From an uncultured Gammaproteobacteria bacterium (lineage in GTDB: Bacteria; Patescibacteriota; Patescibacteriia; UBA11705): DNA of 64,000 nucleotides. The stretch is taken from contig CAYPSS010000001.1 of assembly GCA_964413735.1 (NCBI GenBank), positions 140,679 to 204,678 of the forward strand, read 5' to 3'. The position numbers and the translations under genes are program-made. Below, one piece after another: positions 1,179 to 49,862 of this stretch (its first letter is position 1; each line of letters starts with the position of its first letter). The notes beneath the pieces were generated by a model that worked only from the letters and a program-made list of their open reading frames with translations, made no database searches and was not told where the DNA came from.

Positions 1179-1604
1179 ATGAAAACATATTTAGTTAAAA
1201 CAGAAGAAGAAACTTTGCGTTTAGCAGCTGAATACGCTCAAAAATTAACAGGTGGCGAAGTGGTATTATTAAATGGTAATCTTGGTGCCGGTAAATCGGT
1301 TTTTGTCAGGGGTGTGGCACGAGCCTTGGGTGTTAGAAATCGTATTACCAGCCCGACATTTGTTTTATTAAAAGTTTATCCGATTAAAAATAAGAAAATA
1401 AAAAAATTGATTCATGTTGATGCTTATCGTGTTTCCCCTGAAGATTTATTGGCTGTCGGGCTCTCTGAATATTTGAATAATCCTGATACTGTCGTGATGA
1501 TTGAATGGGGTGAAAAACTAACCAAAGTTTTGAAAAAACAAAAGATTAAAATACAAACAATTGATATAATGATTAATCAGTCGGATCGGAAAATAAGTTT
1601 TTAA
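1179..1604 (+). CDS. tsaE: tRNA threonylcarbamoyladenosine biosynthesis ATPase TsaE
   Basis: 141 aa; P-loop GNLGAGKS; 6-nt gap after tsaD. Confidence 0.75.
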   Translation: MKTYLVKTEEETLRLAAEYAQKLTGGEVVLLNGNLGAGKSVFVRGVARALGVRNRITSPTFVLLKVYPIKNKKIKKLIHVDAYRVSPEDLLAVGLSEYLNNPDTVVMIEWGEKLTKVLKKQKIKIQTIDIMINQSDRKISF

Positions 1605-9862: not shown

Positions 9863-11512
<1,650 letters not shown>

Positions 11513-11605
11513 TTATTGATAAAAATAGTTAATTAATTTTAATAATAAATTTAATAGTTTTTAATTATCTACACCCCCTATTTTCTAATCCCAAATCCCT
11601 AATTT

Positions 11606-11893
11606 TTACTCAATCACCGCTAAAATATCTGATTCGCTTAAAACCAAATAAGTTTGGTTATCAATTTTCACTTCATTTGGAGAGTACTTGGTGAAAACCA
11701 CTTTATCGCCGACTTTCAAATCAAGCGCAATCCTTTCTCCTTTGTCATTTAATTTTCCCGGACCAATGGCAATCACTTCACCCTTTTCCGGTTTTTCTTG
11801 GTTAACGGTGTCGGGGATAATAATACCGGATTCAGTGGTTCGTTCGTCATTTAGAGGTTTAACGATTACATGATCGTTTAAAGGTTTTAACAT
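11606..11893 (-). CDS. groES: co-chaperonin GroES (Hsp10)
   Basis: 95 aa; LKPLNDHVIVKPL... family sequence; upstream of groEL. Confidence 0.9.
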   Translation of the reverse strand: MLKPLNDHVIVKPLNDERTTESGIIIPDTVNQEKPEKGEVIAIGPGKLNDKGERIALDLKVGDKVVFTKYSPNEVKIDNQTYLVLSESDILAVIE

Positions 11894-11956
11894 ATTTAGA
11901 ACAACGAATTAACGGATGATTACAAATCAATGCTTGATTGGTAATGCCGCCATTCG

Positions 11957-11983
11957 TTAGCAGTTAAGTGTTTAGAGTGCTAA
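11957..11983. promoter_or_regulatory. CIRCE-like inverted repeat (ttagcagtt-N9-gagtgctaa), HrcA operator upstream of groES-groEL
   Basis: 7/9 + 9/9 match to TTAGCACTC-N9-GAGTGCTAA; located just downstream of a TTGACA-N16-TACAAT promoter on the minus strand. Confidence 0.7.
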
Positions 11984-12091
11984 ATTCTATACTATATTGT
12001 ATTAGATTTTTATCATATGTCAAGAGCGCTTGTCAAATGTATTTTTATAATAAATTAATGAAAAAACAGGACTTTGCCCTGTTTTGAAATA

Positions 12092-17186: not shown

Positions 17187-17288
17187 ATAATACCGTCATA
17201 ATTTGACGGTTTTTTTATCTGAATATCTTGACAAAGTTATTTGTTGAAGATAAAATATTAAATTCCCTTTGACCTATCGAGGTGATCT

Positions 17289-17600
17289 ATGAATAGGGTA
17301 AAAAAGATTATTCCTTTTTTGAAAGGAGAAACTCCTCTCCAAGCAATTGAACGGTTGAAACAATTCAAATGTCGTTTTTGTAACATCGCGGAGATCCAGC
17401 AATTTTGGCAGGATAATTTGCTTGAATGTAGTCATTATAGAGCAATTGTTTGCCTCCAAGAAGAAAGTTCTTTTTTTAATCAGGTTGCTTGTACGTGGTG
17501 TGGTGGGGAATTAAATCTTAAGAATATTTATATTGAATTTTCCAGTGTTGTTGATGAAAGATATGGAATTTTGGTTGAGGTTGATCCTTGGTTGTTGTAA
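17289..17600 (+). CDS. small Cys-rich protein, paralog family C (103 aa; CxxC...C...C...CxWCG)
   Basis: own promoter cttgacaaag...gataaaat, SD cgaggtga; terminator aaagccgcttaaatcagcggttttttt; paralogous to 17704..18021. Confidence 0.55.
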   Translation: MNRVKKIIPFLKGETPLQAIERLKQFKCRFCNIAEIQQFWQDNLLECSHYRAIVCLQEESSFFNQVACTWCGGELNLKNIYIEFSSVVDERYGILVEVDPWLL

Positions 17601-17703
17601 AAAAAACTTAAAGCCGCTTAAATCAGCGGTTTTTTTATACGCCTTGACAAAATAAATTTATATATATAAAGTATTAGATTCTCTTTCACCCAAGAGGTGA
17701 TAT

Positions 17704-18021
17704 GTGGCAAAGGTGAAAAAAATTGTTCGTTTTTTGGAAGAAGAAAATCCTCGACAAGCAGTTGAACGTTTGAAGCAATCAGGGTGTCGTTTGTGTACTA
17801 TTTCTGAAATTTTTGCATATTGGAAAGAATGTCGATTGGAGTGCAGTCGTTATGCAGCCATTGTTTGTCTTCATGAAGAGAGCTTTTTTGGTGATAATGT
17901 TTTTTGTTCTTGGTGTGGTTGGGGTAATTGGCAAAGTAATAACATTTACACTCAGTTTTCTCCTAACGTAGATAATAAACATGGAATCTTGGTTGAAGTT
18001 GAGGAACAAAATACACATTGA
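17704..18021 (+). CDS. small Cys-rich protein, paralog family C (105 aa; GTG start)
   Basis: MAKVKKIVRFLEE... aligns with MNRVKKIIPFLKGE...; conserved promoter/5'UTR; terminator ggccactaaatcagtggtcttttt. Confidence 0.5.
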   Translation: MAKVKKIVRFLEEENPRQAVERLKQSGCRLCTISEIFAYWKECRLECSRYAAIVCLHEESFFGDNVFCSWCGWGNWQSNNIYTQFSPNVDNKHGILVEVEEQNTH

Positions 18022-18161
18022 TAACATGTGAATATAATTAGTTTGAAGCATGGCCACTAAATCAGTGGTCTTTTTATTTTTCGTGATTGACAAATTAAAT
18101 GATTTGTAGTAATGTGGCAAGTTAATTAGTACATTGAAAAATCTCCCTAGAGGAGGGACTT

Positions 18162-18269
18162 ATGAAAAAAGAAGTTGTTATTGCCACAGTGGTTGAAAAA
18201 AATGAGAAATTTTGGTGGAAAATCAATGGAGTTTTCTTTGATATTTTACCGGTGGAATTTTTGATCTAA
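18162..18269 (+). CDS. candidate small ORF (35 aa, MKKEVVIATVVEKNEKFWWKINGVFFDILPVEFLI) with strong SD gaggaggg
   Basis: sits between promoter TTGACA-N17-TAATGT (about 18084) and the 178-aa ORF; no homology evidence. Confidence 0.3.
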   Translation: MKKEVVIATVVEKNEKFWWKINGVFFDILPVEFLI

Positions 18270-18284
18270 AGTGGAATCTATTTT

Positions 18285-25803: not shown

Positions 25804-28128
25804 TTAATTGTTTTTTTCATTGTTGGTAAAATCAGCAGAATCATCCTCAATAAAATCATTATTGTTTTCATCTGAATTTTGTGATTCATCAATATCATTG
25901 TTTTCCAAAGAGTTAATTTTATTAAAAACACTGGGAGTTGGTTGGTCGTCAATATCGGCGGCGGAAATCAAAACATCACGGGGTCGAGCACCATCGGCCG
26001 GGCCAACAATTCCGCGCTCTTCCAGCAGATCAATTAATCGAGCGGCTCTGGCATAACCGACACGCAGGCGACGTTGCAATAATGAGGCGGAAGCCTTCCC
26101 AGCCTGGATAACTACATTTTTCGCTTCATCAAGCAGACTGTCATCATCGTCACTATCGGAAAAATCAAAACTTGATTTACCTGATTGTTTTTCGGTGATT
26201 GAATCATCATATTCCGGATCACCGCCGGCTTGGCGCAAAAAGTTAGTAACGCGTTTGATTTCTTCATCACTGACATAACAACCTTGTAAACGGCGTGGTT
26301 TGGAAAGTTCCGCCGTTAAGTAAAGCATATCGCCCTTACCGATTAATTTATCGGCCCCAACCGTATCTAAAATAGTGCGAGAGTCCATTTGCGATGCCAC
26401 ACTGAAAGCCACTCGTCCGGGAATATTGGCTTTGATTAAACCGGTGATAATATCAACTGAAGGTCGTTGTGTAGCCACAATTAAGTGAATTCCGATTGCG
26501 CGAGCCATTTGAGTTAAGCGAATAATACAGGCTTCTACCTCAGCGGATGCCGCCGCCATAATATCGGCGAGTTCATCAATAATAATAACAATGTAAGGCA
26601 TTTTATCTTCCGTATCTTGATTATAAGATTCGATATTTCGTTTATTGGCTTTTGATAAAACATCAAACCGATGATCCATTTCATGAATCGCCCACCGTAA
26701 AGCATTGATGGTTTTTGTCACATCGGTAATTACCGGTGCCAATAAATGGGGGATTCCATTGTAAACGGTAAATTCCACGCGTTTGGGGTCAACCAAGATT
26801 AAGCGTAAAGTATCTGGGTTGTTTTGATAAAGCAGACTTAAAATAATTGAGTTTAAGCAGACGCTCTTACCTGAACCGGTGGCACCGGCTACTAATAAGT
26901 GCGGTAAGCTGGGAAGGTTAATGGCCCAACATTTTCCGGAAACATCTTTTCCCAGCGCAATTGCCAAACTTGATTTCGTGGTCTTGAATGATTCTGATTC
27001 AATTACGCTTCGCAATGGCACCATAGCCGGTTGATGATTTGGCACTTCTATCCCCACTAGAGATTTACCGGGAATAGGAGCCTCAATTCTGATTGGATGA
27101 GCGGCCAGAGAAAGAGCCAAATCATTATTCAGTGAAGTAATACGAGACAACTTAATCCCATCAGCCGGTTTGAAAGAATATTGCGTGACTGTTGGTCCGA
27201 CATTAACATCGGACATTTCAATATCAATACCAAAATTGTGTAAAGTGGAAACAATTCTTTGGGTGGCAAGATCAATATCGCCGCTTAATGGTTTGGTTGA
27301 TTTATTATTTAATAAGGCGAGGGGCAAGTCGATTTTTAATTTTTTATATTTTGAAACAGGAATAATTTCCGGTTCAGATGTTTCTTTGGCTTGATTAAAA
27401 GTACTTGATTTTTCTTGTCCTGAGGCACTTAATGGAGGAGCTGTTTGTTTTTTATCCGCCTCAGCTAAGATTTTTTTTGTTTCTTCGTCTAATTCGTCTT
27501 CTTCATCATTACTGTCTTCATCAATCTTGTTATTTGATAAAGAGCGTCGTTTAAATGGGTTTAAAATATTATGCTCACTTTGATTAAAATTTATTTTTTT
27601 CAAAATGTTAAATAATGGATTATTGAAAATAATAATCAGTGAAATTATGGTAATACCGATTAAAATAACTAAGGAAGCCCAAAAGTCCAAATATAAACGT
27701 AATGGATAACTCAGGGCTACACCTGATAATCCGCCACCGATTCCTTCGAGAGCGAGGGGCAAAGAATAAAGAAAATATTTTCGGGTTATAATTAAATGAA
27801 TTGTGCCGTTTAATCCCAAAAATAAAATTATAATTCCCAAGTAATTAACCCAAGTAAGTGATTGTTTGTCAGGTTTAATTAGGGAGTAAATAATATAAAG
27901 CAAGGCTAGGGGAAATAAATATTTCAATAAGCCAAACATAATTTCCAGCCCCGAATTAATTTGTTGCCCAATTACTCCGGCTAAGGAAAAAAAACTTAAA
28001 ATACTGATTAATGAAACAATGATTAATAAAATAATTATTATTCCTTTTTTTGCTTCTGCAGATAGTACGTGGTATTTTTCAATAATTTGGTTTTGATGCG
28101 CTTTTTTGTTTCGGCCTGATCTGCCCAT
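25804..28128 (-). CDS. ftsK: DNA translocase FtsK/SpoIIIE
   Basis: 774 aa; N-terminal TMs, Walker A GATGSGKS, gamma winged-helix LLQRRLRVGYARAARLIDLLEERGIV, acidic C-tail. Confidence 0.9.
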   Translation of the reverse strand: MGRSGRNKKAHQNQIIEKYHVLSAEAKKGIIIILLIIVSLISILSFFSLAGVIGQQINSGLEIMFGLLKYLFPLALLYIIYSLIKPDKQSLTWVNYLGIIILFLGLNGTIHLIITRKYFLYSLPLALEGIGGGLSGVALSYPLRLYLDFWASLVILIGITIISLIIIFNNPLFNILKKINFNQSEHNILNPFKRRSLSNNKIDEDSNDEEDELDEETKKILAEADKKQTAPPLSASGQEKSSTFNQAKETSEPEIIPVSKYKKLKIDLPLALLNNKSTKPLSGDIDLATQRIVSTLHNFGIDIEMSDVNVGPTVTQYSFKPADGIKLSRITSLNNDLALSLAAHPIRIEAPIPGKSLVGIEVPNHQPAMVPLRSVIESESFKTTKSSLAIALGKDVSGKCWAINLPSLPHLLVAGATGSGKSVCLNSIILSLLYQNNPDTLRLILVDPKRVEFTVYNGIPHLLAPVITDVTKTINALRWAIHEMDHRFDVLSKANKRNIESYNQDTEDKMPYIVIIIDELADIMAAASAEVEACIIRLTQMARAIGIHLIVATQRPSVDIITGLIKANIPGRVAFSVASQMDSRTILDTVGADKLIGKGDMLYLTAELSKPRRLQGCYVSDEEIKRVTNFLRQAGGDPEYDDSITEKQSGKSSFDFSDSDDDDSLLDEAKNVVIQAGKASASLLQRRLRVGYARAARLIDLLEERGIVGPADGARPRDVLISAADIDDQPTPSVFNKINSLENNDIDESQNSDENNNDFIEDDSADFTNNEKNN

Positions 28129-28194
28129 ATTTATTTTGATTTTAATATTAAGACTATCTGTATTTTAGCATAATTATGATATTTGTTAAAGTTT

Positions 28195-28600
28195 TGAAAT
28201 AATTAAAAAGAGGTGTCACCCACTTGGGATGACCCCCTTTACGCGAGAAAGTTTCCTTTCTCATAGGAGCAGACAAAGTATTCCCTAGTTAAAGAACTAA
28301 GAAATAGAGGAGAGAGAATCTTGTCTACTCTTATGAGTCAACAAACAGTCGCATTAATGAAGAGGAGTGTCGCCAGGGTCTAATTATATATAAAAAAATT
28401 TGTACCCTGCGCTCCCCCCCACATTAATACGACCATCGAGTTAGTCTTCACAGTGAAGCAGAGGATAACCATGAGATTGATGATAGGCGAATAAATAAGA
28501 ATTTAGGCCTGAAAATCTCAATTATTATTCCTTTTGACCAATTCCGGTCGCAAAACCTAGAAGTAGTCAGAAAGACTCTCTCCTCTACATCACTTTGAAG
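28195..28600. ncRNA. candidate large structured RNA of unknown class in ORF-free GC-enriched island between ftsK and clpP
   Basis: nested helices ctcataggag/ctcttatgag (28260-28269 with 28328-28337) and cagacaa/ttgtct; long-range 11-bp pairing agaggagagag (28306-28316) with ctctctcctct (28576-28586); no ORF over 60 aa in 700 bp. Confidence 0.35.
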
Positions 28601-28780
28601 ACTAAATGGTAGTATGTTTAATGAACGTAATTGAACATTATAGCATAATTAAATAAATTTGTCAATAGTAATAAACAATATATAATGTTTTTTTGCTAAA
28701 ATTAGGTTAAATTAAGTGTAATTAATTATTGACAATAATAGAAATCAATTGTTTTGTTTTGGATATTTACTAATTGATAA

Positions 28781-28810
28781 GTTGAATTTTCGATGGGATA
28801 TGATATAATA
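28781..28810 (+). promoter_or_regulatory. sigma70-type promoter for clpP (TTGAAT-N16-TATAAT)
   Basis: ttgaattttcgatgggatatgatataat about 30 nt upstream of clpP start. Confidence 0.5.
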
Positions 28811-28837
28811 TAAAAACTTATAATTAATCATAAAAAT

Positions 28838-29419
28838 ATGAATTTAGTACCAACGGTTATTGAAAAAACCAGTTATGGTGAACGCGCTTATGATATTTAT
28901 TCTCGTTTATTAAAGGAAAGAATCATTTTCTTGGGAACGGCCATTGATGATGTGGTGGCTAATTCGGTGATTGCTCAACTCTTGTTTTTGGAAAGTGAAG
29001 ACCCGAAAAAAGATATTAAAATTTATTTGAATACTCCTGGTGGGCAAGTGAGCGCTGGATTGGCGATTTATGATACTATGCAATATATTAAACCGGATGT
29101 TCAAACCATTTGCATTGGATTGGCCGCCAGTATGGGGTCGGTTCTTTTAGCCGCCGGAGCCAAGGGGAAAAGATTTGCTTTGCCAAACGCGGAAGTGATG
29201 ATTCATCAAGTAATGGGTGGAGCGCAGGGTCAAGCTTCTGATGTGAAGATTGCGGCTGAGCATATTCTCAGTATTAAGGATCGTTTGAATAAAATTATCG
29301 CTATGCATACTAATCAGCCAGTAGCCAAGGTGGAAAAAGATTCTGATCGAGATTATTTCATGAGCGCTGATGAAGCTAAAAAATACGGAATTATTGATAA
29401 AATTATTAGTAACAAATAA
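28838..29419 (+). CDS. clpP: ATP-dependent Clp protease proteolytic subunit ClpP
   Basis: 193 aa; catalytic Ser in GLAASMGS, His in MIHQV, Asp in D-R-D. Confidence 0.9.
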
Positions 29420-29614
29420 TTAGAAAAAATCCCAGTTTATGGGATTTTTTGTTTGTGGACAAAAGGGGGATAAAACCTGAATACTTTTTCTTTCCCTTAC
29501 CTATGGTTTAAATGTTATAATAATTAAAAGTAATGGCGGAATTATAACGATTTTCGTAAAATTAGCTAAAATTAATCTATTGACAAGAAAAATAATACAT
29601 GATAAGATGAGTCG

Positions 29615-29746
29615 TTGACTAAAGGCCGATTTTCAACGGCAGACACGACAAGCATGGGATTTTTACTTCAGGTTAAATCAGGCTCCGGCTCGATTTCGCC
29701 TTGGTAAAAATTTCTTGTCTGCCATTGAAAGTGGGTCTTTTTTATT
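29615..29746 (+). ncRNA. candidate small RNA or structured leader between TTGACA-N17-TAAGAT promoter (29580-29608) and a T-tract
   Basis: hairpins cgttga/tcaacg and ggcagaca...tgtctgcc (8 bp enclosing about 75 nt), then gtgggtctttttt; a second consensus promoter follows at about 29766. Confidence 0.3.
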
Positions 29747-45863: not shown

Positions 45864-45954
45864 AGTTAATTAAATAAAAAAGAAGCTGTCAAAGCTTCTT
45901 TTTTTATATTAGAATGTAAAAATAAATTTTTTTTATTTATTTTGTTATATTTTT

Positions 45955-46320
45955 TCCTTACGAACATTTTATATCCGGTGGGTAGGAGTCCCTGGCTCTA
46001 AATATTTATAATGTTCGTAGATTGGAAAGAAACAATGATTCTGTTAAAAATAACGCCAACTTGTCATTGCGAGGAGTTCCGTGAAACGGAACGACGCGGC
46101 AATCTAAAGGATCAGTGGGCGAAACTTTTGTAGTTTCTAAATATTTTATTGTTATTTTCTGGAAACATTCTGTATCAAGTACGGGAGTAACCAAAGATTT
46201 CCGGGGCTCCATATTCGCGAGCATTGATTATATTTTGTGTAATGATAACAACAAAGACTTCCTGCCTGCTCGCCTCGCTTCGCGGGCGAAGCGGGTCGAA
46301 TAAATAACTAAACAGGTTTT
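45955..46320. ncRNA. candidate structured RNA / GC-enriched noncoding island in convergent intergenic region
   Basis: about 490-bp gap with no convincing ORF; hairpins gttccg/cggaac, gaaact/agtttc, cgcttcg/cgaagcg; 10-nt inverted repeat tacgaacatt/aatgttcgta; P4-like aaagatttccggggctccata at 46194-46214. Confidence 0.3.
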
Positions 46321-46355
46321 TTAACAAAAAAGCAGATCAGTTGATCTGCAATGTT

Positions 46356-49366: not shown

Positions 49367-49408
49367 AGTTAAGGTTGATGGACAAGCGACATCGGAGATA
49401 AGTTTGTT

Positions 49409-49744
49409 TTAAGAATTGGCTTCATCAATTATTTCATTAATGGTGCTGACGCGTTCTTGCGTATCATCAATTTTGAAGTGAACGCGTGGGGTGAACTTCA
49501 TTTTTATAACTTTACCCAATTCTTTTTGGATTAAGCCTTTGTGTCTGATAATAAAACCTAAGGCTTCTTGGCTTTTATTAAAAGGCAAGACACTAATTCG
49601 GGCGCAAGCGGTTTTCAGATCCGGCGCCGTGGAAACATTAACAATGGTTACAAAAAATTCAATCGGGAATTCCAATTCTCGCGAAAAAATTTCCGCTAAT
49701 TTTTTTTGGAGTAAGCTGTTAATTTGAAGAATTCGCTCTGACAT
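49409..49744 (-). CDS. rbfA: ribosome-binding factor A
   Basis: 111 aa; KH-like RbfA sequence (...ELGKVIKMKFTPRVHFKIDD). Confidence 0.8.
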   Translation of the reverse strand: MSERILQINSLLQKKLAEIFSRELEFPIEFFVTIVNVSTAPDLKTACARISVLPFNKSQEALGFIIRHKGLIQKELGKVIKMKFTPRVHFKIDDTQERVSTINEIIDEANS

Positions 49745-49862
49745 AAAATAAGTTAAGGTTAATAATCAAGTTTAGGTTATTGTATCATATTTGTCAATTA
49801 TTGCGGATTCTTGAATATCAATATGTGTATTTTCAGTATTAAAATTGAAATTTTTCTCATAA

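Follow-up and report, generated by a model that had tools for sequence, protein, structure and literature searches.

The current analysis concerns the 709-bp spacer between ftsK and clpP in a 64-kb stretch of patescibacterial DNA (contig CAYPSS010000001.1; the whole stretch is referred to here as the window). We are highly confident that this spacer harbors an independently transcribed, highly structured noncoding RNA (ncRNA) gene of ~425 nucleotides (nt) on the minus strand, and that the gene belongs to a modular family without a match in Rfam 15. Two mutually complementary tracts, the GA tract GAGGAGAGAG (28585-28576) and the CU tract UCUCUCUCCUC (28317-28307), are the most conserved strings of this family. 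With regard to function, we tentatively propose, at somewhat less than even confidence, that the RNA acts as a base-pairing riboregulator with a pyrimidine seed, which GA modules of the same RNA would mask or buffer. For identity and mechanism taken jointly, our confidence lies slightly above an even chance, which is a compromise between the two claims.

An independently transcribed gene upstream of ftsK

A sequence-only reading of the window had singled out 28195-28600, a GC-rich, helix-dense island without a sizeable open reading frame (ORF), as a candidate large structured RNA, and had left the strand uncalled. The transcribed strand is the minus strand, co-directional with ftsK. The element runs ~30 nt further than delimited, to about 28630, where transcription is inferred to start. 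The transcription unit and the adjacent ftsK promoter comprise the following features:

28637-28665, minus strand: ncRNA promoter, consisting of TTGACA (28665-28660), a 17-nt spacer, and the extended -10 element TGCTATAAT (28645-28637)
28205-28630, minus strand: inferred primary transcript of ~425 nt, with leader, module A, module B, 3' domain, small hairpin, and terminator
28205-28240, minus strand: intrinsic terminator, AAAGGGGGUCAUCC-CAAGUGG-GUGACACCUC followed by UUUUU
28162-28189, minus strand: ftsK promoter, TTAACA-16-TGCTAAAAT, outside the ncRNA and downstream of its terminator

The ncRNA promoter matches the consensus at 12 of 12 positions and additionally contains the TG of an extended -10 element. 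It is one of eight full-consensus promoters in the 64 kb, compared with 0.01 expected by chance, and an equivalent promoter is located at the same position in 12 of 12 homologous loci and in the minimal relative L003 described below. A terminator scan revealed a sole terminator-like site in the region, at 28233-28215 plus the U-run, again on the minus strand. All six inner pairs of its stem covary, and the loop CGUGUGG or a one-base variant thereof is kept in seven relatives. Since the ftsK promoter follows this terminator, the ncRNA represents a separate transcription unit. In the loci read, ftsK is preceded by an extended -10 element of the TGNTAAAAT type (TGCTACAAT in L093), and this also holds for L098, where the ncRNA is missing. 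The distance from the terminator to ftsK varies from 77 to ~350 nt across loci, and an ORF of 143 amino acids is located between the two genes in L003. The annotated ftsK start of L086 (L086:3001) overlaps the terminator hairpin of the ncRNA; the true start is probably further downstream, and the annotation looks like a gene-calling artifact. Overall, the element has its own promoter and its own terminator, both conserved across relatives, as is characteristic of an independent ncRNA gene.

The spacer is flanked by ftsK (25804-28128, minus strand; FtsK domains present) and clpP (28838-29419, plus strand). The GC content amounts to 39.2% in 28205-28630 and to only 14.5% and 16.9% in the two flanking spacers. 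The longest ORF of the ncRNA region in any frame has 66 amino acids with translation table 11, or 74 amino acids with TGA read-through, and no ORF is kept across the homologues; the corresponding region of L001 has one of 87 amino acids. A Pfam search of translated fragments of at least 36 amino acids (six frames, tables 11 and 25) yielded a single chance match (E = 0.035); a protein hit under an alternative genetic code, which would have pointed to a decayed pseudogene, was thus not found, UGA read-through included. The minus strand of 28195-28600 folds at -146.7 kcal/mol (z = -7.8) and the plus strand at -111.8 kcal/mol (z = -6.2), with none of 100 dinucleotide shuffles equally stable in either case. 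The minimum free energy (MFE) of the inferred ~425-nt transcript is -156 kcal/mol.

Modular architecture

The order along the RNA strand is promoter, short leader, module A, module B, 3' domain, small hairpin, and terminator. The structural elements of the window copy are as follows:

28444-28602, minus strand: module A, a three-way junction composed of the P1 5' strand (28602-28581), P2 (28575-28529), P3 (28527-28466), and the P1 3' strand (28465-28444)
28576-28585, minus strand: GA element GAGGAGAGAG, of which GAGGA closes P1 and GAGAG forms junction J1/2
28344-28437, minus strand: module B, a long hairpin whose apical loop is AU-rich and whose 5' strand carries the degenerate GA element GUGGGGGGGAG
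28260-28337, minus strand: 3' domain, a long helix (28337-28320 / 28278-28260) around the CU element and an inner hairpin (28301-28284)
28305-28318, minus strand: CU element UUCUCUCUCCUCUA, an internal loop of the 3'-domain helix and the exact complement of UAGAGGAGAGAG in module A
28245-28262, minus strand: small hairpin GAGAAAG-GAAA-CUUUCUC, situated after the 3' domain and before the terminator and evident from the sequence itself

Module A (~150 nt) occurs zero to three times per lineage, each copy displaying the GA tract GAGGAGAGAG or a degenerate form of it. L092 and L097 have no copy; the window, L086, L093-L096, and L127 have one; L081 has two, as does L001 with a decayed upstream copy; and L082 and L084 have three. 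The decayed extra 5' module of L001 (L001:2207-2450) keeps the promoter and GAUGUAGAGGAGAGAG and has lost its 3' closing strand. The closing helix P1 reads GAUGUAGAGGA / UCCUCUGCnUCAy and is adjoined by the single-stranded GAGAG of J1/2. P1 and J1/2 form the most conserved part of the module; the J2/3 and J3/1 strands are not conserved, and the arms P2 and P3 differ in sequence between copies at constant shape.

The GA theme is repeated in the closing helix of module B (GAUGnGGAGGGGA / CUCCUCUUCAUC), which carries the full GAGGAGAGA(G) in L092 and L097, i.e., the lineages without module A. In the window, the degenerate GA element of module B includes a G7 run that corresponds to the C7 run at 28414-28420 on the other strand. 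The 3'-domain helix of ~24 bp (CAAAUGAGUAGRCAAG / CUUGYCURCUCAUUUG) encloses a variable inner hairpin, and at the position of the small hairpin the relatives have a hairpin of other sequence (GGGA/UCCC, GAGGG/CCCUC, GAGGGC/GCCCUC). Inferred transcript lengths range from ~105 nt (L003) over ~215 nt (L097) to ~825 nt (L082).

The features that the sequence-only reading had listed, i.e., helices, a long-range complement, the C7 run, the high GC content, and the lack of a sizeable ORF, were all recovered where it had placed them. The helices agacaa/ttgtct, tagtt/aacta, and gagaaag/ctttctc are real. The 10-bp helix ctcataggag (28262-71)/ctcttatgag (28329-38) pairs as well, but it is not perfect as described, with one position that reads G·T on the plus and A·C on the minus strand. 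The 11-bp long-range complement between 28306-28316 and 28576-28586 is exact and even reaches 12 bp (28305-28316/28576-28587); a perfect complement of at least 12 bp occurred in 1 of 200 dinucleotide shuffles of the region. The likeness noticed between two GC-rich segments is that of the terminator to the 3' strand of module B, but there is no evidence that it has any meaning.

Structural support from relatives

The best FtsK match in the genome collection is that of a Candidatus Falkowbacteria lineage (L001; 65% identity), and the contigs of more closely related FtsK proteins were added to the comparison. Twelve further distinct Falkowbacteria-like lineages (L001, L081, L082, L084, L086, L092-L097, and L127) have a homologue of the ncRNA in front of ftsK, with nhmmer E values of 1e-36 to 3e-5; the homologue of L127 was recognized by reading its sequence, and L090 is nearly identical to the window. 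All 12 loci keep promoter and terminator, and the ncRNA lies directly upstream of ftsK and in the same orientation in all homologues found.

Folding and covariation across these homologous intergenic regions, the check that the sequence-only reading had suggested, provided strong structural support. In the alignment of the 3' domain and terminator (A2), 25 of the 36 pairs show compensatory changes and 90.2% of the cells are paired, compared with 39 to 56% when slid, and 0 of 500 shuffles reached the observed value on any of five measures. The 3'-domain helix of 24 bp has 17 pairs with compensatory changes, and 92.6% of its cells are paired. Module B (alignment A4) has 23 pairs, 15 of them compensatory, with 85.1% paired cells versus 42 to 60% when slid. 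For P1 of module A (alignment A3), 6 of 15 pairs are compensatory, e.g., one with A-U in eight and G-C in seven copies. Alignments of the inner arms with MAFFT (A6 and A7) were not in register, and RNAalifold returned no consensus on A7; the arms were therefore judged by single-sequence folds and z-scores. Folded singly, 15 module A copies from 10 lineages adopted the identical two-arm topology without exception (z-scores of -2.2 to -8.3; mean, -4.9).

The strand assignment is based on the excess of G·U over A·C cells (112 versus 22 over the covarying helices of A2, A4, and A3), which fixes the minus strand, since pairing on the opposite strand would drop by 4 to 12 points. Model R1, built from the 3' domain, the downstream hairpin, and the terminator, scored 127 bits on the minus strand (28196-28345) versus 26 bits on the plus strand. 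A pairing of the 5' and 3' ends (UUACG/CGUAA), present in the window and in L093, was dropped as not conserved elsewhere. A secondary structure on one strand that is backed by compensatory substitutions is the second hallmark of an independent ncRNA gene that was found here.

A minimal relative of ~105 nt was detected in L003 (L003:2270-2412, plus strand; R1 score of 33.8 bits, E = 0.002), which comes from a patescibacterium outside Falkowbacteria (isolate nzgw375). Behind its promoter lies a long helix around UUCUCUCUCCUC plus a small hairpin, and a U-run follows; any GA module is lacking, which suggests that the CU domain may be the ancestral core of the family. The ncRNA is absent upstream of ftsK in L098 (FtsK with 54% identity; different neighbors), and neither nhmmer nor R1 found a homologue at 78 other ftsK loci of Patescibacteria (L002 and L004-L080; FtsK identity of ≤51%). 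A metagenome scan with the module pattern retrieved five contigs, all from lineages already collected; the family is thus rare, or the pattern was too strict. Blastn searches of phage (50,697 records) and plasmid (72,556 records) sequences revealed nothing similar, and among 28 matches of a pattern scan in IMG/VR the nine that were read represented unrelated sequence, mostly one repeated coding stretch. A mobile-element or phage-borne origin hence received no support from the phage, plasmid, and viral contig searches. Comparison of adjacent genes across the loci did not reveal a consistently neighboring protein partner.

A family without a match in Rfam 15

Scanning with Rfam 15, which the sequence-only reading had also proposed, matched no known family, including RNase P, transfer-messenger RNA (tmRNA), signal recognition particle (SRP) RNA, 6S RNA, OLE, ROOL, GOLLD, and raiA. 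This holds for the entire 64-kb window at the gathering score, where tRNA, tmRNA, and rRNA were not found either, for 28050-28900 at E ≤ 10 (4227 models), and for seven homologous loci plus L003 at E ≤ 5. A literature search on ncRNAs and structured RNAs of Falkowbacteria, Patescibacteria, the candidate phyla radiation (CPR), and Parcubacteria found no description of this ncRNA.

The ncRNA resembles OLE, ROOL, GOLLD, raiA motif RNA, and HEARO in being a stand-alone RNA of several hundred nucleotides with covarying helices and multi-way junctions, and in being a clade-restricted RNA, found by comparative genomics, whose function is not obvious from its neighbors. It differs from them in its tandem, copy-variable module with a complementary 3' domain and in its occurrence in Patescibacteria, and no Rfam model of the five families matched the window or its homologues. 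This comparison draws on the general features of the families together with the negative Rfam result. We rate the ncRNA as a new family within the stand-alone structured bacterial ncRNAs, and its repeat-plus-complement design is unusual.

The GA and CU tracts

The helices around the two tracts covary freely, while the tracts themselves stay near-invariant. The GA tract is nearly invariant over the 15 module A copies, and 10 of the 13 full-size lineages share UCUCUCUCCUC without any change, as does the minimal L003; the exact CU motif occurs only once in the window. In the predicted ensemble, the probability of being unpaired is 0.77-0.99 for the CU tract and 0.85-0.92 for GAGAG, with GAGGA engaged in P1. 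According to this folding model, the CU tract would thus be an accessible and conserved seed of the kind that defines trans-acting base-pairing small RNAs (sRNAs). A GA:CU duplex of 9 to 14 bp (about -16 to -25 kcal/mol) is possible in every GA-bearing member. In L127 and L092, the CU tract is shortened to 9 nt (UCUCUCCUC) and position 10 of the pairing has changed from G-C to A-U or U·G; in L097, a flanking U-A pair has become C-G. These few natural changes are consistent with GA:CU pairing, and L094-L097 have extra local GGAG partners beside the CU tract. A pyrimidine-motif triplex of the CU tract on P1 was also considered; it is geometrically possible and was judged unlikely, as five C+·G-C triples would be needed.

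A tentative role as riboregulator

In the mechanism proposed here, the CU tract would be the working end and functional core of the RNA, a seed that pairs with purine-rich, Shine-Dalgarno (SD)-like sequences on other RNAs. The upstream GA tracts would serve as partners or decoys within the same RNA, masking the seed or tuning access to it, with a number of decoys that differs between lineages. Contact with an outside partner is probable for the CU tract and would account for its invariance, and the fact that the CU domain is the only part kept in L003, without any GA module, speaks in favor of the seed/decoy idea. Among the start regions of 52 ORFs in the window, about a quarter have an SD sequence. 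The SD-bearing ORFs encode nearly exclusively proteins of 130 to 270 amino acids without a Pfam domain (1 of 11 with a match), and those without SD mostly have such a domain (9 of 15), including ftsK, clpP, recA, tsaD, tsaE, ychF, and yidC. Four of the eight full-consensus promoters precede SD-bearing genes. The best partial CU matches outside the ncRNA in the 64 kb searched are GA-rich SD sequences of hypothetical genes (-11 to -14 kcal/mol), and the SD-bearing genes of the window are a plausible candidate target set.

The proposal has precedents in part. With RsaE/RoxS, Staphylococcus aureus RNAIII, and the Rsa RNAs the ncRNA shares an exposed pyrimidine motif complementary to SD-like purines, a promoter and an intrinsic terminator of its own, and a seed that, like the CU tract, is far more conserved than the rest. 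Seeds of the RsaE/RoxS type are short runs of C, placed in hairpin loops or in single-stranded linkers of 100- to 500-nt RNAs, in contrast to the 11-nt CU tract in an internal loop, and one to four complementary GA tracts in the same molecule distinguish the ncRNA further. There is no homology to these RNAs (Rfam negative), and the CU tract should be regarded as a candidate seed only. A sensing or sequestering part and a trans-acting part are combined in one transcript in Listeria SreA/SreB and in EutX/Rli55 of Enterococcus and Listeria. The likeness to the ncRNA is only an analogy of logic, as no ligand, sensor domain, or sequestered protein was identified.

Several observations weigh against this role. 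Most genes of the window have no SD sequence, and in the window and the ~8-kb flanks of the relatives the exact GAGGAGAGAG occurs only inside the ncRNA itself. A fold with the full 12-bp GA:CU helix imposed lies about 10 kcal/mol above the MFE; GAGGA is also needed by the covarying P1, and the ground state leaves 5 to 7 nt (GAGAG) for a pseudoknot. The GA:CU pairing is almost without covariation because both tracts are invariant, and its support consists of a few edge changes. Furthermore, three-way-junction modules of 150 nt are more elaborate than a simple decoy requires, and classical sRNAs do not usually carry their seed in an internal loop within a long helix.

Alternative explanations

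The main alternative, although somewhat unlikely, is an architectural or self-assembling RNA, in which the GA:CU complementarity would form an intramolecular pseudoknot (GAGAG with CUCUC, stacked on P1) or an intermolecular pairing. The resulting compact fold or multimer would act as a ribonucleoprotein scaffold or as an RNA-only complex, roles that have been proposed for OLE, ROOL, and GOLLD, without targets in trans. The large size (105 to 825 nt) and ornate build of the family, with its three-way junctions and long covarying helices, would fit such a role, as would the conservation of P1 and of the 3'-domain helix in sequence beyond the needs of pairing. GAGAG and the CU tract are predicted to be single-stranded in the ground state and would be free for a tertiary contact; all GA-bearing members have the complementarity, and with one to four GA tracts per CU tract, intermolecular branching would be possible. 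L003, however, keeps the CU domain without a GA partner, and covariation like that of the other helices would be expected of a purely structural helix, whereas both tracts are frozen. Moreover, a variation from zero to three modules is hard to reconcile with one fixed three-dimensional architecture, and no gene for a protein partner is consistently adjacent.

Distinctly less probable is a sponge for a protein or for the ribosome, in which each of the repeated modules would offer a purine-rich SD-like site (AGGAG / (AG)n) within a conserved helix setting, thereby titrating 30S subunits or a Hfq-, KH-, or S1-type RNA-binding protein, similar to the titration of CsrA by CsrB/RsmZ, and the CU tract would regulate the sponge. 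Like CsrB/RsmZ, the ncRNA has repeated units in species-variable copy number, GGA-containing purine sites embedded in structure, and a strong promoter, whose full consensus suggests high expression. The concentration of sequence conservation in P1/J1-2 would also suit this idea, with the arms, variable in sequence and constant in shape, as spacers that present a site. The differences are considerable: the units are three-way junctions of ~150 nt instead of short hairpins, GGA is located in a helix or junction and not in a hairpin loop, and some members lack any unit. The existence of members with zero or one module (L003, L092, and L097) also argues against a sponge, no candidate protein was identified, and we know of no CsrA-type partner in the Falkowbacteria-like clade. 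Finally, AUG is positioned upstream and not downstream of the SD-like tract, so the module sites are not ribosome-loading sites.

The constant position of the ncRNA upstream of ftsK and its co-directional orientation, together with the terminal intrinsic terminator, could be taken as indicative of a cis-regulatory ftsK leader, i.e., a riboswitch or attenuator whose modules sense a ligand and control terminator read-through. The base of the 3'-domain stem in the RNAalifold structure may overlap the small hairpin, and the tandem three-way junctions with "GGAGAG" superficially recall tandem glycine aptamers (RF00504), in which a GGAGAG-like string follows the P1 5' strand. We nevertheless consider a leader very unlikely. 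The conserved extended -10 promoter of ftsK follows the terminator and is also found where the ncRNA is missing, the spacing to ftsK is variable and interrupted by an ORF in L003, and no riboswitch model of Rfam matched at E ≤ 10. With respect to RF00504 in particular, there was no match in the region at E ≤ 10, the strings of the glycine pocket are absent, and J2/3 and J3/1 are not conserved, unlike ligand pockets.

A divergent housekeeping RNA, which the sequence-only reading had offered beside an uncharacterized large ncRNA, is highly improbable, and only the latter description is upheld by promoter, terminator, homologues, covariation, and the lack of a coding signal. The size overlaps that of RNase P RNA and tmRNA, the promoter is strong, and no other housekeeping RNA was detected in the window. 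However, the family was found in only 13 lineages plus L003 and is absent from the 78 other patescibacterial ftsK loci and from L098, a narrow clade for a housekeeping RNA, and zero to three modules are incompatible with a fixed catalytic core. For RNase P RNA (RF00010/RF00011), there was neither a model match nor a P4 helix with its characteristic strings GAGGAAAGUCC and ACAGAA. The weak resemblance to RNase P that had been noticed earlier is due to chance: AGAAAGU is located on the nontranscribed strand of the small hairpin, whose sequence is replaced in the relatives while its pairing is kept. In the case of tmRNA, ARAGORN predicted no tmRNA or tRNA gene in the window, Rfam was negative as well, and there is no T-arm. 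For SRP RNA and 6S RNA, Rfam was negative, no domain IV motif is present, and the predicted shape is multidomain instead of a single rod.

The chance that the locus is nonfunctional, i.e., a decayed pseudogene, a small-protein gene, or a spacer with chance hairpins, is close to negligible: the 66-amino-acid stop-free stretch on the minus strand and the 87-amino-acid ORF of L001 contrast with the lack of a conserved ORF and of any Pfam match including UGA read-through, with compensatory helix substitutions, with a promoter and terminator conserved in 12 loci plus L003, and with a GC content of 39% versus about 15% in true spacers.

A second RNA beside clpP and further observations in the window

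On the other side of clpP, downstream of it, a second conserved unannotated ncRNA gene is located at 29581-29745 on the plus strand. A consensus promoter of its own (TTGACA-17-TGATAAGAT) precedes a rod-like hairpin of ~120 nt that ends in a U-run. Across seven lineages, the apical ~85 nt of the hairpin hardly change, the core GGCAGACACGACAAGCAUGG...AUCAGGCUYCGGCUCGAU...UAAAAAUUUCUUGUCUG likewise being almost invariant; its basal stem shows covariation (49 pairs, 14 of them compensatory). Rfam had no match for this clpP-distal spacer at E ≤ 10. Relatives are located at the following positions:

L094:1382-1551, minus strand
L087:4176-4296, minus strand
L096:1320-1452, minus strand
L095:1397-1525, minus strand
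L097:1735-1854, minus strand
L127 ~1400-1490, minus strand
L089:6951-7132, plus strand

The AGACAAG/CUUGUCU stem of this second RNA resembles the 3'-domain stem of the ncRNA upstream of ftsK. The sequence directly after clpP, at 29425-29452 (AAAAAATCCCAGTTTATGGGATTTTTT), forms a clean hairpin flanked on either side by A- and U-tracts. It resembles an intrinsic terminator for both directions and separates clpP from the second ncRNA gene.

The window also has several stretches of 450 to 1100 nt between ORFs of at least 120 amino acids, e.g., 17187-18284, 11507-12091, 45864-46355, and 49367-49862. Elsewhere in the window, identical 5' leaders occur in two pairs of neighboring ORFs without Pfam domains, 52463-53026/53204-53758 (minus strand) and 38963-39616/39841-40563 (plus strand). 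One pair shares TAAACGCCCAATACTGGAGGTTGATATG; the other shares the identical promoter TTGACAACTAAAAATATTATGTTAAGAT, a CCGCCCAGAGCGG hairpin, and GGAGG. From their sequences, both pairs look like tandem paralogues with conserved leaders.

Significance

The genomes of Patescibacteria (CPR) measure ~1 Mb and contain very little spare DNA; few regulators are known in these bacteria, and to our knowledge almost nothing is known of their ncRNAs beyond rRNA, tRNA, the introns of these, and the universal RNAs. Large structured bacterial RNAs of orphan status are rare, and several of them later proved to be ribozymes, riboswitches, or large assemblies. The locus described here is a strongly supported promoter-to-terminator ncRNA gene, whose family members span 105 to 825 nt, in a phylum with barely charted ncRNAs. 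The alignments, the R1 model, and the RNA on the clpP side provide material for further work on covariation, expression, targets, and structure.

In its most far-reaching form, which is speculative and in our estimate improbable, the idea would be that of a new type of riboregulator or self-assembling RNA in which the invariant pyrimidine "key" UCUCUCUCCUC is buffered by a tandem array, variable and amplifiable, of purine "locks" GAGGAGAGAG located in the three-way junctions of the same RNA. If true, the lock array would set an intramolecular threshold for release of the seed or would link molecules into multimers, and the RNA would represent a control or scaffolding device at the RNA level that is specific to the ultra-small Patescibacteria, which are poor in protein regulators.

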